The translations under genes and the position numbers were made by a program. Positions 3,250 to 37,501 of a stretch of DNA of 64,000 nt are shown piece by piece; position 1 is the stretch's first letter; the number at the start of each line of letters is the position of its first letter. The notes beneath the pieces were generated by a model that saw only the letters and a program-made list of their open reading frames with translations, did no database searches and had not been told where the DNA came from. Origin of the DNA: Patescibacteria group bacterium (GTDB taxonomy: Bacteria; Patescibacteriota; Patescibacteriia; JBAZBY01); the NCBI GenBank assembly GCA_041671225.1, contig JBAZBY010000001.1, forward strand, positions 961,130 to 1,025,129, in the 5' to 3' direction.

Positions 3250-3392
3250 GTGCTTCCCGCATGGTAGCATCGGCGTACCGCTGGGCACAATCCCTGTGTT
3301 GACGCATCATAAGGGAAGGCGTAGGTTCTGAGTATCACGTTCTCTTTCGCACCTTTGCACCTGCCTCACAACGGTCCCAATTGGAGGTCCCC

Positions 3393-3602
3393 ATGGCACT
3401 CACTAGCGTCCTGCTCCTTCTTCCGAGGGTACTCTGGCGGTACGTCATCGTGCCACTCTGGAACATTGTACTCGTTGGAGGACTCCTGATCATCGCCGTC
3501 GTGTTGCTGGTCGGCATCCTGCTGATACCCGGCAGAGAGCCTGACCACTACACTGACGTTTTTCTGCCCGCAGACTTCAGCCGTCCTAGGAGGGCACCAT
3601 GA
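3393..3602 (+). CDS. Small hypothetical membrane protein (2 predicted TM helices), GC-rich
   Basis: GGAGG 5-6 nt upstream of ATG 3393. Hydrophobic MALTSVLLLLPRVLWRYVIVPLWNIVLVGGLLIIAVVLLVGILLIP. Stop overlaps the next start (ATGA). GC-rich third codon positions. Confidence 0.4.
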   Translation: MALTSVLLLLPRVLWRYVIVPLWNIVLVGGLLIIAVVLLVGILLIPGREPDHYTDVFLPADFSRPRRAP

Positions 3603-4105
3603 GCTCCTATGCGCCCCTTCCCGCGGATCTCATCCTGCCGAAGAGCATCAGGAATCCCCTCCTGTTGCTGACCCTTCCGAGGCTCCGCCTCATCGAGAGA
3701 ATCGCCGGCTCTACTCTGCTGGTGAGTATGGTGGCGTTGGTGCTGGCGATTCGCTTCGGCGATGCGCTCGGTGCGTGCATGTTCCTCGCGCTCTCAGTGC
3801 TCTCCGCCGAGTACTGGTCCGGCGCCGGTGCGCTACGAATATCCGGATACTACGTCCGACTCTTCAAGCACTGCTGGATCCGGAAGGCGCTGCTCTCCAT
3901 CCCCGCCCTGCTGTATGGGGTATGGCTCATCCGGAGCCCGCACTCCGGATTCAGCGAGACCGACATCGCGGCCGGTATCGTCGTGCTGATCAGCAGCATC
4001 GCGCTGCTCCTCCCCACCTGCGACTGGAAAGGCCTCACCGATCCCTTCATCGCAGAGGACGACCCTGATTGTGCGGATGCCCGGCATCCCCGCGTCGACG
4101 ACTGA
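3599..4105 (+). CDS. Hypothetical polytopic membrane protein, GC-rich (foreign-looking)
   Basis: AGGAGG RBS 6 nt upstream. About 4 hydrophobic helices. Translationally coupled to 3393..3602. No recognisable family. Confidence 0.45.
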   Translation: MSSYAPLPADLILPKSIRNPLLLLTLPRLRLIERIAGSTLLVSMVALVLAIRFGDALGACMFLALSVLSAEYWSGAGALRISGYYVRLFKHCWIRKALLSIPALLYGVWLIRSPHSGFSETDIAAGIVVLISSIALLLPTCDWKGLTDPFIAEDDPDCADARHPRVDD

Positions 4106-4194
4106 CGCTGCCACCACCGCAGTACCCACGCTCCTTTCCCCAACAACCTTGCTTCGCAACAACGACCTCGGTTCCGCACCCGAGGTCTTGCTCT

Positions 4195-4241
4195 ATGTGG
4201 ATAACCACATCTTGACTTCGGTTTTTATTCGGTATATCCTT
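4195..4241 (+). promoter_or_regulatory. Promoter/operator region of the small-ORF-lexA operon: near-palindrome ATGTGGATAACCACAT, -35 TTGACT, direct repeat TTCG-N7-TTCG
   Basis: Palindrome at 4195..4210 contains a perfect DnaA-box 9-mer on the complementary strand. TTGACT at 4212..4217. TTCG at 4217..4220 and 4228..4231 lie between the -35 and a TATATC/TATCCT -10. The same TTCG-ATTTTTA-TTCGGTA motif recurs upstream of dinB. Confidence 0.4.
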
Positions 4242-4250
4242 CTTTCTACT

Positions 4251-4592
4251 ATGACCTACTACACCGGAATGATTATCAAAGAGAGCATTAAAGACGAAAA
4301 ACTTCTAAAGAACTTTGACGTGACCGAAGAACAGACATCAGATACCAGCGGCTGGCACATTGTGAATATCCGTATCCCCTCTCCATACATCGGCTTGGTT
4401 TTGCCAAGCATTCAATATGAGTTGAATGAAGAAGGCCGATGGTACGTTCAGCTTTCAAATGGCATGGAGCGTATTATCGTATTTGCAAAGAAAGTTTTCC
4501 GCTTCTCACGCTGGGATGTAGCCGCACAAGAAGCAGCCCGCACCTATGGCACAAGTCTTGGAATTTCAACAAAGTATCTCCGCTTTACATAA
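4251..4592 (+). CDS. Hypothetical small protein, first gene of the lexA operon
   Basis: AT-rich, host-like codon usage. The track ORF's 5' part (4071-4250) is GC-rich read-through. No SD, so possibly leaderless given the promoter just upstream. Stop at 4592 abuts the lexA ATG at 4594. Confidence 0.4.
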   Translation: MTYYTGMIIKESIKDEKLLKNFDVTEEQTSDTSGWHIVNIRIPSPYIGLVLPSIQYELNEEGRWYVQLSNGMERIIVFAKKVFRFSRWDVAAQEAARTYGTSLGISTKYLRFT

Positions 4593-4593
4593 C

Positions 4594-5226
4594 ATGGCAT
4601 ACGTTCTCCCAAGAAAAAAACAAGAAATCCTCGCATATCTCGAGGACTATATTGAAAAAGAAGGCTTTGCGCCGACACTCACAGAAATTGCAAAGCAGTT
4701 GAAAGTACACTCACTCGCAACCATTCATGAGCATCTCACATATCTTGAAGAAAGAAAGTTTATTGCTCGTGATGCACGACAGGAGCGCGGTATCCGCATT
4801 CTCAGAACGACACGCAAAACAAAAGAGTCAAGAGAAATTGGTAACGATGCGATCAGCCTTCCGTTGGTTGGTCTCATTACTGCGGGAGAGCCGATTGAAG
4901 CAATAGAAAATATCGACCGGCATATTCCCGTTGCAAAAGAAATGGTTCGCGGTAAGAACGCCTATGTCTTGAAGGTGCAGGGTGACTCCATGATCGAAAG
5001 CCTCATTCAGGATGGTGACTATGTCGTTGTTGAAAAAACAGAGTACGCACAGAATGGGGATACGGTTGTTGCATTGTTAGAAGATGGAACAGCAACGCTC
5101 AAAAAATTCTTTAAAGATAAACACTACATTCGTCTGCAACCAGCAAATAAGAAGTATAAGCCGCGTCTGGTGAAAAATCTCGTCATTCAGGGCAAGGTGC
5201 TTGGCATCATCCGTTCTTTTGCCTAA
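4594..5226 (+). CDS. lexA: LexA repressor (S24 peptidase)
   Basis: N-terminal winged HTH (LTEIAKQL). Ala-Gly cleavage region. Catalytic Ser in VQGDSMIE and Lys in LKKFFK. Start moved to MAYVLPRKKQEIL. Confidence 0.9.
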   Translation: MAYVLPRKKQEILAYLEDYIEKEGFAPTLTEIAKQLKVHSLATIHEHLTYLEERKFIARDARQERGIRILRTTRKTKESREIGNDAISLPLVGLITAGEPIEAIENIDRHIPVAKEMVRGKNAYVLKVQGDSMIESLIQDGDYVVVEKTEYAQNGDTVVALLEDGTATLKKFFKDKHYIRLQPANKKYKPRLVKNLVIQGKVLGIIRSFA

Positions 5227-5244
5227 AAAAATTTACTTTTTATC

Positions 5245-5259
5245 TTCGATTTTTATTCG
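5245..5259 (+). promoter_or_regulatory. Candidate SOS operator upstream of dinB: TTCG-N7-TTCG direct repeat
   Basis: TTCG at 5245..5248 and 5256..5259 (CTTCGATTTTTATTCGGTA). Near-identical to 4216..4233 (CTTCGGTTTTTATTCGGTA) in the lexA-operon promoter. Confidence 0.35.
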
Positions 5260-5347
5260 GTAATGACTTCTCCGCGTATGGCGGATCCGCCGAAGTCCCG
5301 CTAAAGCGGGACGAAGGCGGAGGTTTTTCTTCGGTAAAAGATATTCC

Positions 5348-6556
5348 ATGAAACCCGTTATTCTCCATTGCGATCTCGATGCCTTCTTCGCCTCTGTTGA
5401 AGAGGTGCTGCATCCCGAACTTAAGGGTAAGCCTTTGATCGTTGGTGGAAACCCAGAAAAGCACCCAAAAACGCGGGGCATCGTTGCATGCCCTTCATAC
5501 GCTGCGCGGGCGCTCGGTATTAAAACGGCAATGCCGCTTAAAAAAGCATACCGTATCGCACCGCAAGCGATCTACCTTGAAGGAAGCTTTGCTCATTACC
5601 GTCAATTCTCAGAGCGCTTCTTTCAGATTCTTGCTGAATACAGTAATCATTTGGAACCGCGTTCACTGGATGAGGCATTCATTGATGTAACGCCAATAAC
5701 CTCATGGGTGATGGCGCATGAGTTGGCACAAGAAATCCGTGACCGCGTCCGTACTGAACTCGGCCTTGCGGTAAGTATTGGTGTGGGTACAAGCAAAACA
5801 ATCGCAAAGATCGCCTCCGAAGAAGCAAAGCCTAATGGAATGTGTGTTGTACATCCTGGCACAGAAGAACGATTTCTTGCTCCCCTGCCCGCATCTGCCA
5901 TGCCCGGTATTGGCAAGCAAACCCAAAAGTACCTTCGTATGAATGGATTACATACCATAGGCGACATTGCGCGCCTACCAGAACGACGAGTGATCCAACT
6001 TTTTGGATGGCGCGGAACCATACTGCAAGATAGGGCTCGTGGAATCGATACAAGACCAGTAAAAGCTTATGAGGATGTAAAGTCCGTGGGTCACGCTCAC
6101 ACCTTCAACGACGATCTCACAGATACAAAAGCGCTGCTGAGTACCGCTTCATATCTTTTAGAAAAAGCAGCGAGTAGGCTTCGGCGCCACAATACATATG
6201 CGCATGTCATAAAAATCACCATCCGATACTACGACTTCACGACAGAAAGCAAACAGTTGCGCCTGCAACACCCAACAGATGACCAGCATTTACTGTATGA
6301 AAAAATTGAACAGCTTTTTCATGTGCTCAGAAAACCGCGCCCCATAAGACTCATCGGAGTCACGCTCAGCGAGCTCACGCCAAATCCGCGCCAGCATTCC
6401 TTCCCATTCTCACGATTGATGCGCATTCAGCATATTCAACGTGCCGTAGACACGCTCAGAGACCGCTTTGGTTTTGAAGCGGTTCTTTCTGGCAGTACGA
6501 TGCCAGTCAAACGCGCCTTTGGCAACGCTGGGCGCACGCTCTTCTATCAGCGTTGA
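5348..6556 (+). CDS. dinB: DNA polymerase IV (Y-family, DinB)
   Basis: ILHCDLDAFFASVE N-terminus, SIGVG motif, little-finger domain. Sits immediately downstream of lexA. Confidence 0.9.
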   Translation: MKPVILHCDLDAFFASVEEVLHPELKGKPLIVGGNPEKHPKTRGIVACPSYAARALGIKTAMPLKKAYRIAPQAIYLEGSFAHYRQFSERFFQILAEYSNHLEPRSLDEAFIDVTPITSWVMAHELAQEIRDRVRTELGLAVSIGVGTSKTIAKIASEEAKPNGMCVVHPGTEERFLAPLPASAMPGIGKQTQKYLRMNGLHTIGDIARLPERRVIQLFGWRGTILQDRARGIDTRPVKAYEDVKSVGHAHTFNDDLTDTKALLSTASYLLEKAASRLRRHNTYAHVIKITIRYYDFTTESKQLRLQHPTDDQHLLYEKIEQLFHVLRKPRPIRLIGVTLSELTPNPRQHSFPFSRLMRIQHIQRAVDTLRDRFGFEAVLSGSTMPVKRAFGNAGRTLFYQR

Positions 6557-32663: not shown

Positions 32664-33926
32664 CTACTTTTTCTCCGGCTTCTCTTTGTAATATTCTTGC
32701 AAACCGAGCTCCTCTGGAAAATAATCCTGCTTCCCCGCCTCACCCTCATAATCATGCGAATATTTGTACTCCTTGCCATACCCGATGTCTTTCATGAGGT
32801 CTGTTGACGCATTGCGCAAATGGAGCGGTACAGGAAGATTGCCATGCTCGCGTGCGTCCTGCCGCGCTTTGAGAATGCCGACGTATGCTGCGTTAGACTT
32901 AGGAGCGGTGGCAAGATACGTGGCACACTGTGCGAGGGTGAGCTGCGCTTCCGGCAAACCGATGCGCTCGCATGCGAGAAAACACGACGTGGCGAGAATC
33001 TGCGCCCGCGGATCCGCATTGCCGATATCCTCCGACGCGAGGATCACCATGCGGCGCGCGATAAAGAGCGGGTCCTCCCCTGCTTCCAACATGCGGGCAA
33101 GCCAATACAACGCGCCATCTGGACTAGACCCGCGGAGCGATTTGATGAATGCGGAGATGACGTTATAATGCTCTTCGCCGTCTTTGTCATAGAGCAACGC
33201 CCTTTTCTGCAAGGCCTCTTCAATATCTTTCTTGCTGATGGTTGCTGCGCTCGCAAAAGCCGCCGCAACATCAAGGCCATTGAGTGCGATGCGCGCGTCG
33301 CCGTTGGCAGTCTTCACAAGAAGCGCCCTGGCATCCGGTGCGAGTTTCTTCTTTCCTTTGAGGCCGCGCTTCGCATCCTTCAATGCGCGGTCAATGATGC
33401 TGCTGATCTCCTGTTCCGTGAGCCGCTGAAACACGAACACACGGGAGCGGGAGAGCAGCGGGCTTATCACCTCAAAACTCGGGTTCTCCGTGGTGGCGCC
33501 GATGAGCATAATGGTCCCCTGCTCCACGAATGGCAGGAGGCCATCCTGCTGCGCTTTATTCCAGCGGTGGATCTCATCGATGAACAATATGGTGCGTGCT
33601 CGGTGGAATTTGAGGTCATCCTCCGCCTTCTTGATGATGTCACGAAGGTCCTTCACGCCGGATGACACTGCAGAAAGCTGCACAAAGCGCGACTGCGTCT
33701 GTTTTGCGATGAGCCGCGCAAGCGTGGTCTTGCCGCTCCCTGGCGGCCCCCAGAACAGCATGGAGAACAGCTTATCATCCCGAATGGCCTTGCGGAGCAC
33801 CTTCTCTTCTCCCATGATCTCCTGCTGTCCGACGAATTCATCAAAATTCTCCGGCCGCATGCGGTCAGCAAGCGGCGCGTCTTTCCTCTTGAATTCCTCC
33901 GCTGCGTTTTCGAACAGATCTGCCAT
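32664..33926 (-). CDS. rarA: Replication-associated recombination protein A (RarA/MgsA AAA+ ATPase)
   Basis: FVGQQEIMGE...LFWGPPGSGKTTLARLIA, Walker B ILFIDEIHRWNKAQQD, C-terminal MgsA helical domain. Confidence 0.9.
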   Translation of the reverse strand: MADLFENAAEEFKRKDAPLADRMRPENFDEFVGQQEIMGEEKVLRKAIRDDKLFSMLFWGPPGSGKTTLARLIAKQTQSRFVQLSAVSSGVKDLRDIIKKAEDDLKFHRARTILFIDEIHRWNKAQQDGLLPFVEQGTIMLIGATTENPSFEVISPLLSRSRVFVFQRLTEQEISSIIDRALKDAKRGLKGKKKLAPDARALLVKTANGDARIALNGLDVAAAFASAATISKKDIEEALQKRALLYDKDGEEHYNVISAFIKSLRGSSPDGALYWLARMLEAGEDPLFIARRMVILASEDIGNADPRAQILATSCFLACERIGLPEAQLTLAQCATYLATAPKSNAAYVGILKARQDAREHGNLPVPLHLRNASTDLMKDIGYGKEYKYSHDYEGEAGKQDYFPEELGLQEYYKEKPEKK

Positions 33927-36575: not shown

Positions 36576-36854
36576 TCACGCCGCGATTTCGGCTTTGGTT
36601 GAGACGAGCTGGATGGAGTACGGCGGGTGGCCGTCGAGACCGCCAGTGAAGACCTGGCAGCCAGGATGGGTGGGGGTTCCCACGCGTCTCCGATACGTGC
36701 ACACGGGGCTGTGCACGCAGGAGCCGCCTTGCCAGAGAACGCAGTCCGTGAGAACCAGGTCACTCACCACGGTGCCGTCTCCCCGCCGGAGAATGACCTG
36801 CCGTTCACACGGCTTGCTCGCATGGTGGAAATCCCGCTCGTAGTATCCGTGCAT
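36576..36854 (-). CDS. Possible small Cys/His-rich protein (92 aa), GC-rich
   Basis: GGAGGG 7 nt upstream of ATG 36854. MHGYYERDFHHASKPCERQ...CVLWQGGSCVHSPVCTYRRRVGTPTHPGCQ. No family recognised. Confidence 0.3.
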   Translation of the reverse strand: MHGYYERDFHHASKPCERQVILRRGDGTVVSDLVLTDCVLWQGGSCVHSPVCTYRRRVGTPTHPGCQVFTGGLDGHPPYSIQLVSTKAEIAA

Positions 36855-37501
36855 CTGCTGTTCCCTCCATGTACTCAGGTACGAAAGAGCACCCATTGCT
36901 GGGTGCGGTTCGTTGGAAAACGCGATATCTACCCAGATATGGGAAGCTGATTTCGGCACCGTACACGCCAGTCTGGCATGTCGGTTGCCACCGTGTTCAT
37001 TCGGGGTCAGCACCCCTCCACGGCTTCTTGATATCTGTACTGTGAAAGATGCACGGAGCCTACAGTGTTCTGTCCTGACTGTCAAATCATAGGAAAGGAA
37101 TCTATAGAAAAACCTGCCAAAGGTCATTTTGGCGCCAGGGTAAACTGAATCCCAGGTGGTTGGTAGTTCCCCTGGGATAAAGAGCGATGGGCGGTCGAAG
37201 CGAGATTTCGACCCTACCTTCCAGAAGACGTGTGTCCTCTGGGAAAGGGTGTTCTACTTATTCGGGACTGAACCCGGGGTCGTGATCTCAATGAATGCAT
37301 GTGGCACTCAGAAAATCGCGAAAGATAGAACTATATTTACGATACAATAGTCTGTTCTGCTGTCAAGACTTTTTTTTCTGTGGATAACTCAAATGGAACG
37401 GCGGCTAGTCACGAAGACGAGCCGCCGATAGAAGAAGGGTCCCCGGCGAACGAACGTTCGCTGCGAGATGTCTGCACATGCTGTACAGGGACCACAGGAT
37501 T

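Follow-up and report, generated by a model that had tools for sequence, protein, structure and literature searches.

Which DNA element controls the unit formed by a small open reading frame (ORF), lexA and dinB in a 64-kb stretch of a Patescibacteria group bacterium (contig JBAZBY010000001.1), here called the window, meaning the whole stretch that was analysed? The original prediction had placed at this locus an SOS cassette under a candidate non-canonical LexA box, a direct repeat TTCG-N7-TTCG present in the operon promoter and again ahead of dinB. Phylogenetic footprinting strongly supports such a cassette with a direct-repeat box at both places, and we consider it very likely that the element, in the refined form TTCGG-N6-TTCGG, is the SOS box (the predicted LexA operator) that drives the operon in the manner proposed below. 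The main finding is correct and it is not new: a direct-repeat LexA site in Patescibacteria was published by Sanchez-Osuna, Barbe and Erill (Environ Microbiol 2017, 19:3465), as cited in PMC7739468, which counts it among the cases of a LexA that evolved to bind a direct repeat, so that the box cannot be called uncharacterised.

The 19-mer CTTCG(G/A)TTTTTATTCGGTA occurs twice in the window, as had been claimed, at 4216–4234 (CTTCGGTTTTTATTCGGTA) and 5244–5262 (CTTCGATTTTTATTCGGTA), both times on the plus strand. These two copies were the sole matches in the 64 kb with up to three mismatches allowed; shuffling gave an expectation of 0.02, and none of 100 shuffles reached two copies. The promoter scan bore out the location of copy 1 between the −35 and −10 hexamers of the operon promoter, and copy 2 ends 86 nt before the dinB ATG (5348), in agreement with the predicted distance of ∼90 nt. 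The bare pattern TTCG-N7-TTCG was not enriched on its own in the window (6 found versus 3.7 expected); the signal is carried by the whole 16–19-mer, T-rich spacer included, rather than by the bare pattern.

Comparison was made with 80 orthologous lexA loci from species-representative genomes (725 kb), picked via an alignment of 25 LexA proteins; their LexA is 51–67% identical to that of the window. A perfect TTCGG-N6-TTCGG stands upstream of lexA, on the lexA strand, in 78 of the 80 loci; locus L077 has one mismatch and L073 comes without upstream sequence. Where lexA is the first gene the box lies 29–130 nt upstream with the geometry TTGAC-N-box-N-TATAnT, and where it lies ∼400 or ∼870 nt upstream another ORF stands in between, the same as in the window. 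TTGAC one nucleotide ahead of the box is the consensus of 83 upstream sites, and a TATAnT-like element follows the box in the orthologues. A second perfect box comes after the lexA stop codon in 37 loci, mostly with dinB as the following gene; the order lexA-dinB was seen at no fewer than 25 orthologous loci. The 725 kb contain 140 perfect boxes against ∼1.4 expected (simple arithmetic on a uniform base composition), and just two of them, both without a T-rich spacer, lie away from the lexA/dinB regions.

Since the spacer is nearly invariant across the 140 sites (TTTTT, then A or C), we define the operator as a 16-mer of two TTCGG half-sites one helical turn (11 bp) apart, with the clade consensus TTCGGTTTTT[A/C]TTCGG. 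The direct repeat of the original prediction was therefore upheld, while its core TTCG-N7-TTCG had to be replaced by TTCGG-N6-TTCGG with the near-invariant T5 spacer. The base before TTCGG varies (C 65, T 39, A 22 and G 14 among the 140 sites). A weight matrix built from these sites exceeded 8 bits in the window at the two copies only (31.8 bits for copy 1 and 26.4 bits for copy 2). In a six-way alignment of the window with its closest relatives CTTGACTTCGGTTTTTnTTCGG and TGTGGATAA were invariant, the surrounding sequence having diverged.

The predicted gene order small ORF-lexA-dinB was recovered, with lexA and dinB identified by domain and family-profile matches (Table 1). The LexA protein passes TIGR00498 (185.6 bits versus a cutoff of 110.95) and is matched by PDB LexA structures with E-values down to 7e-31. 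Its residues Ala97-Gly98, Ser132 and Lys170 are invariant in 25 relatives and align with A84-G85, S119 and K156 of Escherichia coli; judged by these features, both the cleavage site and the catalytic dyad are intact and the protein is a canonical LexA. DinB passes NCBIfam PRK02406 (310.9 bits versus a cutoff of 256), and the catalytic motifs CDLDAFFASVE and SLDEAFIDV are present in its translation. The gene beyond dinB is convergent. The host belongs to the Patescibacteria (candidate phyla radiation, CPR): a LexA 100% identical to that of the window is recorded from a Patescibacteria group bacterium, and the nearest named relatives are from Candidatus Kerfeldbacteria.

The promoter ahead of the unit (TTGACT, a 17-nt spacer and TATCCT, 9 of 12 matches) was the sole sigma-70-like call between 3300 and 5500, and box 1 lies in its spacer. 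A box in the repressor's own promoter and again ahead of translesion polymerases is the classical pattern, for which reason we read TTCGG-N6-TTCGG as a LexA site.

Table 1. Positions of the regulatory elements and genes of the small ORF-lexA-dinB unit, in window coordinates
Feature	Position	Strand	Evidence
GC hairpin GACCTCGG-N8-CCGAGGTC at the end of the upstream 168-aa gene	4164..4187	+	read from sequence
DnaA-box 9-mer, perfect (TTATCCACA on the minus strand, TGTGGATAA on the plus strand), 7 nt upstream of −35	4196..4204	-	conservation
−35 hexamer TTGACT	4212..4217	+	promoter scan
Predicted LexA operator 1 (box 1), TTCGGTTTTTATTCGG, directly repeated TTCGG half-sites with an 11-bp period, occupying the promoter spacer	4217..4232	+	31.8 bits, conservation
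−10 hexamer TATCCT	4235..4240	+	promoter scan
113-aa ORF, first gene of the operon	4251..4592	+	ORF; stop 1 nt before the lexA ATG
lexA, 210 aa, winged-helix DNA-binding domain and S24 self-cleaving peptidase domain	4594..5226	+	PF01726, PF00717
AT-rich block AAAAAAATTTAC, 8 nt upstream of box 2	5225..5236	+	kept in post-lexA sites
Predicted LexA operator 2 (box 2), TTCGATTTTTATTCGG, degenerate, between lexA and dinB	5245..5260	+	26.4 bits; 37 loci with a perfect box at the same place
Two GC-rich hairpins (5271–5285 and 5286–5321) followed by GGTTTTTCTT, terminator-like insert in the dinB leader	5271..5331	+	folding
Duplicate of the operator 3′ half (TTTTTCTTCGGTAA), one orphan TTCGG half-site	5324..5337	+	BLAST of the leader against the window
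dinB, encoding the Y-family translesion polymerase DNA polymerase IV, at the end of the unit	5348..6556	+	IMS, IMS_C and HhH domains

The operator was also looked for in metagenomic contigs with the bare operator. Most matches were due to chance and came from unrelated organisms, and for this reason only promoter-embedded matches were used. Among the matches listed, promoter-embedded boxes stand ahead of lexA, dinB, a small ORF followed by dinB, and imuA-like, imuB-like and radical-SAM (S-adenosylmethionine) genes. A lexA-(72 aa)-imuB-dnaE2 operon of Latescibacteria (L204) has a perfect box, CTTGACTTTCGGTTTTTGTTCGGGTATACT, and a lexA-imuB-dnaE2 operon of Krumholzibacteriota (L203) a box with one mismatch; the box was also present on a high-GC contig whose LexA falls in the Krumholzibacteriota/Latescibacteria/Eisenbacteria group. 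The operator that precedes dinB in 37 of the orthologous loci is, in other contigs, also found before radical-SAM, imuA-like and imuB-like genes and before lexA-imuB-dnaE2 operons; on these sequences it is not confined to Patescibacteria.

Some observations on single contigs are added here. Contigs of 55–72% GC with a promoter-embedded operator (L203, L204, L154, L159, L103, L141, L145, L155, L167, L086, L153 and L150; non-Patescibacteria where LexA could be placed) carry it ahead of lexA-(72-85 aa)-imuB-dnaE2, radical-SAM, imuA-like and imuB-like genes. In L133 a RarA/MgsA-type gene is preceded by a perfect box, which has a −35-like element containing TTG on one side and an extended −10 on the other (TGATAGAAT). 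At ten loci (L015, L019, L021, L022, L023, L028, L037, L053, L058 and L206) a conserved GC-rich leader with the motif GGAYGAGGNAACTCCC was seen between the LexA-box promoter and lexA or the small ORF; the motif forms a short stem with a GNRA tetraloop inside a longer hairpin, corresponds to no Rfam family and is absent from the window. A scan of viral contigs gave no promoter-type box and no LexA or DinB homologue, and TTCGG arrays in a few phage contigs: at least two close TTCGG-N6-TTCGG units, some of them 11-nt-periodic, occur in L208, L220, L224/L302 and L248, and may be iterons or sites of an unrelated protein.

How the operon would work can be outlined as follows. A single promoter would drive the 113-aa ORF, lexA and, by read-through, dinB. 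A LexA dimer on box 1, its winged-helix domains placed head-to-tail on one face of the DNA, would exclude RNA polymerase, and in this way LexA would repress its own operon. On damage, LexA would cleave itself between Ala97 and Gly98, with Ser132 and Lys170 as the catalytic dyad, in response to RecA bound to single-stranded DNA. The promoter would then be open again, and the levels of the small protein, newly made LexA and polymerase IV would rise together. Copy 2 would be the counterpart of the second operator that most relatives keep ahead of dinB, and expression of dinB in the window would probably depend mainly on read-through from the lexA promoter. As the 113-aa ORF starts ∼10 nt after the −10, its mRNA would be nearly leaderless.

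The resemblance to known LexA systems is only in part the one that had been suggested. The box was likened to that of Alphaproteobacteria, GTTC-N7-GTTC, which is also found in Acidobacterium (PMC8565304). The 11-bp period and TTC are indeed common to both; the half-site here is not GTTC, G standing before TTCGG at only 14 of the 140 sites, and the conserved bases extend on the 3′ side (GG after TTC), unlike in the alphaproteobacterial motif. The recognition helix of the window LexA reads SLATIHEHL (clade consensus SSLATVHEHL). The corresponding helices are SSSTVHGHL in Bacillus subtilis, SKSGIHRLI in Sinorhizobium and SPNAAEEHL in E. coli, and the proposed check against the alphaproteobacterial helix came out negative: the helix is nearer the Bacillus type than either of the others and so looks Gram-positive-like, which is weak evidence. 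The Gram-positive (Cheo) box, CGAAC-N4-GTTCG, has inverted half-sites 9 bp apart; its half-site GTTCG overlaps TTCGG by four bases, and the STVH-x-HL helix is common with the B. subtilis LexA. The half-sites here being direct and 11 bp apart, the arrangement of the two DNA-binding domains should differ, and a plausible view is that LexA kept its way of recognising a half-site and changed how the two half-sites are arranged. The LexA of Balneolaeota also has a direct-repeat operator, TTACACATATTTTWTACATA, established by comparative genomics and electrophoretic mobility shift assay, with a regulon centred on lexA, recA and translesion polymerases and including a radical SAM gene (PMC7739468); the sequence of its half-site is unrelated to TTCGG. 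The Patescibacteria motif of 2017, as far as that citation describes it, agrees with the window operator in superphylum and in direct-repeat structure. The system is a further instance of a published kind, and its novelty is therefore low.

Next to the −35 the original prediction had noted a 16-bp near-palindrome that doubles as a DnaA box. The near-palindrome, ATGTGGATAACCACAT at 4195–4210, contains TGTGGATAA, the reverse complement of TTATCCACA, which is the DnaA box consensus (PMC8203912); what proved to be conserved is the 9-mer, and the palindrome is not. Of 78 loci, 63 have a perfect 9-mer within the 160 nt that precede the lexA promoter box (73 with one mismatch allowed), usually 13–16 nt before the LexA box, that is 7–9 nt before the −35, in either orientation and with the flanks AGTTATCCACAG. 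Elsewhere in the 725 kb there are ∼19 copies. In the six-way alignment the flanks of the invariant 9-mer diverge; certain lineages have another LexA box, of either orientation, directly beside it. The 9-mer of the window thus stands near the core promoter, matches TTATCCACA and is kept in orthologues, and through it the replication initiator DnaA would most likely have a second input to the lexA promoter. It was not found at the two loci checked outside the clade, L203 and L204. In E. coli, uvrB and recN are co-regulated by DnaA and LexA (Wurihan 2018, as cited in PMC8203912). There, to the extent that the citation shows, the two boxes meet at the same SOS promoter; in the present case the shared promoter is that of lexA, and the predicted DnaA site is kept over a large clade. 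Within the literature collection searched, no paper joins ‘DnaA box’ with ‘lexA promoter’, and the DnaA box at this promoter is the only element of the locus that is possibly new.

Two further copies of the DnaA-type sequence were observed in the window. At 245–330 ∼10-nt-periodic CCCCAC/TCCAC repeats come after a perfect TTATCCACA, immediately ahead of the minus-strand MraZ N-terminus (1–244), an arrangement kept in six relatives (L001, L006, L009, L032, L079 and L201); this looks like a MraZ operator with a DnaA-type 9-mer at its edge. A third perfect TTATCCACA, at 37379–37387 on the minus strand, lies 11 nt upstream of TTGACA in an ∼800-nt ORF-free stretch (36703–37500) by two tRNA genes. 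This stretch also gave a sub-threshold match to the SAM riboswitch at 36922–37037 on the minus strand (27.2 bits versus a gathering score of 44.4, E = 0.0014, full model length).

The region between lexA and dinB is more variable. The 37 post-lexA sites have the consensus taaATTtTTTTActtt.tA.cTTCGG and share an AT-rich block (AAATTTTTTTAC) 8–9 nt upstream. No consistent sigma-70 promoter could be fitted to these sites; the corresponding block of the window may be an UP element or a weak −35. Box 2 is perfect in two of the closest relatives: in L201 it stands 10 nt before the dinB ATG, and in L202 it is followed by a 695-nt GC-rich insert. The GC hairpins that had been noted upstream of dinB are present, two in number, and turned out to be a lineage-specific insert without counterpart in L200, L201 and L202. 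The dinB leader (5263–5350) folds with a minimum free energy of −39.5 kcal/mol (z = −4.35), and the hairpins have no Rfam match. The insert is flanked by a 13/14 duplicate TTTTT[A/C]TTCGGTAA at 5250–5263 and 5324–5337; by BLAST, 5324–5337 matches 5250–5263 (92.9%, 14 nt) and 5322–5336 matches 4220–4234 (93.3%, 15 nt). The ∼60-nt segment has the appearance of a lineage-specific insertion, which may terminate part of the read-through. A repeated mobile element was considered and rejected, there being no second copy in the window or the fetched loci. We also observed that GC-rich insertions concentrate between the dinB-proximal operator and dinB (window 5250–5337, with 60 nt inserted; L202 4663–5324, with 695 nt inserted), so that this part of the locus is a hot spot for them.

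What carries the LexA reading was observed directly, namely the conservation of the operator, its position within the promoter, the LexA domains and catalytic residues and the gene associations. A number of points weigh on the other side. The 64-kb window holds no dnaA, recA, uvrA or ruv genes, and its UvrD/PcrA, RarA/MgsA (32664–33926, minus strand) and Xth-like genes carry no box. The invariance of the half-sites is partly circular because the matrix sites were chosen for perfect half-sites; spacer and positional conservation are free of that selection. Binding by LexA, repression, induction by damage, head-to-tail geometry, the weakness of box 2 and binding by DnaA are all predictions from sequence. 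The published 2017 consensus is likely the same motif, an identity that we have assumed. In box 2 the first half-site is TTCGA: the G at its position 5, which hardly ever differs among the orthologues, is replaced by A. No promoter was called around this box in the scan of 3300–5500, and the closest relative, L200, lacks it. Finally, DnaA is a candidate factor at TGTGGATAA, and the 9-mer found at the lexA promoter also adjoins the MraZ-type repeat array upstream of mraZ.

Against this background, could the 16-mer be an element of promoter architecture, or the site of a non-LexA regulator travelling with lexA? Its location in the promoter spacer, a T5 tract that could affect DNA bending and the predicted status of LexA binding would all fit. 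The 16-mer, however, turns up in either orientation and not only within spacers: copies lie upstream of the promoter, against the DnaA box and immediately in front of the lexA ATG. Translesion-synthesis genes of several phyla have it before them, each time in the company of a LexA whose helix is of the STVHEH type, and it is nearly absent elsewhere (the two strays in the 725 kb, none in the rest of the window). This is the distribution of a classic LexA regulon, and we regard a non-LexA site as very improbable. We give next to no credit to the idea that LexA binds the near-palindrome, the direct repeat being irrelevant, even though most characterised LexA boxes are palindromes and this one abuts the −35. 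The right arm differs among relatives (CCATCT in L200, GTCCCT in L201, TGCCCT in L202 and CTAGTC in L206) and is unconserved even at 75–85% LexA identity, which led us to reject the palindrome as a LexA site; moreover, in 55 of the 63 loci the 9-mer is in the other orientation without a palindromic partner, and no such element precedes dinB.

Two further rival readings concern the 9-mer and box 2. GTGGR repeats are a known type of MraZ operator, and the 9-mer is in phase with the 10-nt-periodic GTGGG/GTGGA array upstream of mraZ, both in the window and in the six relatives, which makes MraZ (or another factor) a rival to DnaA at TGTGGATAA. The site at lexA is single where MraZ operators are arrays, all nine positions and the flanks are kept and fit the DnaA consensus rather than a 5-nt MraZ box, and within the mraZ arrays the 9-mer stays perfect while other repeats vary. 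A single, fully conserved 9-mer appears to fit DnaA better than MraZ, and binding by MraZ or another factor seems to us unlikely, if worth keeping in view. For box 2, the mismatch (almost every orthologous site has this half-site intact), the lack of a callable promoter and the loss in L200 make its function here doubtful. Adding the hairpin and U-tract that separate it from dinB, one may see in it a relic without regulatory function, dinB being expressed only as the third gene of the lexA operon at a level set by partial termination at the hairpin. Yet 15 of the 16 operator positions and the upstream AT-rich block are kept, one weak half-site may be tolerated by a LexA dimer, and a repressor sitting on the box could still obstruct read-through. 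The relic is a real possibility, towards which we incline less than towards some remaining function; box 2 appears at best a weakened operator, and is probably a weak operator or roadblock.

No Pfam or NCBIfam family matches the 113-aa product of the first gene. Together with other proteins of ∼110–125 aa it makes up a family with 183 representatives at E≤1e-3, in which some remote homologues are fused to GNAT, GrpB plus ASCH, DUF362 or YCII domains. Close homologues occur within a LexA-box-controlled unit in L200 (81% identical) and L202 (68–69%), and diverged members (27–40% identical) again within such a unit in L013, L037, L205 and L206, so that by these associations its link to lexA is recurrent. 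The AlphaFold2 model is a confident one and has an alpha/beta fold with a predicted local distance difference test score (pLDDT) of 95.2; Foldseek gave no match in PDB or BFVD at E≤1e-3. At three other loci (L114, L149 and L176) an ORF of 82–88 aa (e.g. MYEIINEPIKVLVSF...LSWQLEELY) directly follows a promoter-embedded LexA box, with dinB next in L114 and L176; by eye it appears unrelated to the 113-aa ORF.

Upstream of the operon, the GC hairpin that precedes the promoter is likely a terminator or insulator. It went uncalled in the terminator scan because its T-tail is poor; L200, L201 and L202 have a hairpin at the same place with different stem sequences. Between the divergent UvrD/PcrA gene and the SOS promoter there is a hydrophobic, GC-rich (57%) ORF of 168 aa (3599–4105), which gave no family match and no tblastn homologue in the 80 loci; the three closest relatives have ORFs of 157–174 aa at the corresponding place.

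A broader picture can be sketched, which we offer tentatively and would not yet favour: in Patescibacteria the promoter of the SOS master operon would be wired to DnaA, with DnaA and LexA together setting the levels of LexA and of the translesion polymerase and the 9-mer extending control to cell division via mraZ. The 9-mer is kept in ∼80% of 78 lineages, in some of them sandwiched by LexA boxes on both sides, and if the picture is true, replication status and DNA damage would be integrated at a single promoter. As a separate point, TTCGG-N6-TTCGG would also control lexA-imuB-dnaE2 in Latescibacteria and Krumholzibacteriota.

A reader with nothing but the raw sequence recovered the repressor operator of an uncultured bacterium with a reduced genome. 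The outcome is a testable map of the operon, with a promoter, two operators, a DnaA box, a small conserved protein and polymerase IV. As regards SOS biology, the result is in the main confirmatory, in that LexA has changed its operator geometry repeatedly, and translesion synthesis has been kept as a core target. Knowledge could be added by the clade-wide coupling of a DnaA box to the lexA promoter, by the recurrent 113-aa protein and by the operator in Latescibacteria and (with one mismatch) Krumholzibacteriota, the last of which bears on how and when direct-repeat specificity arose.

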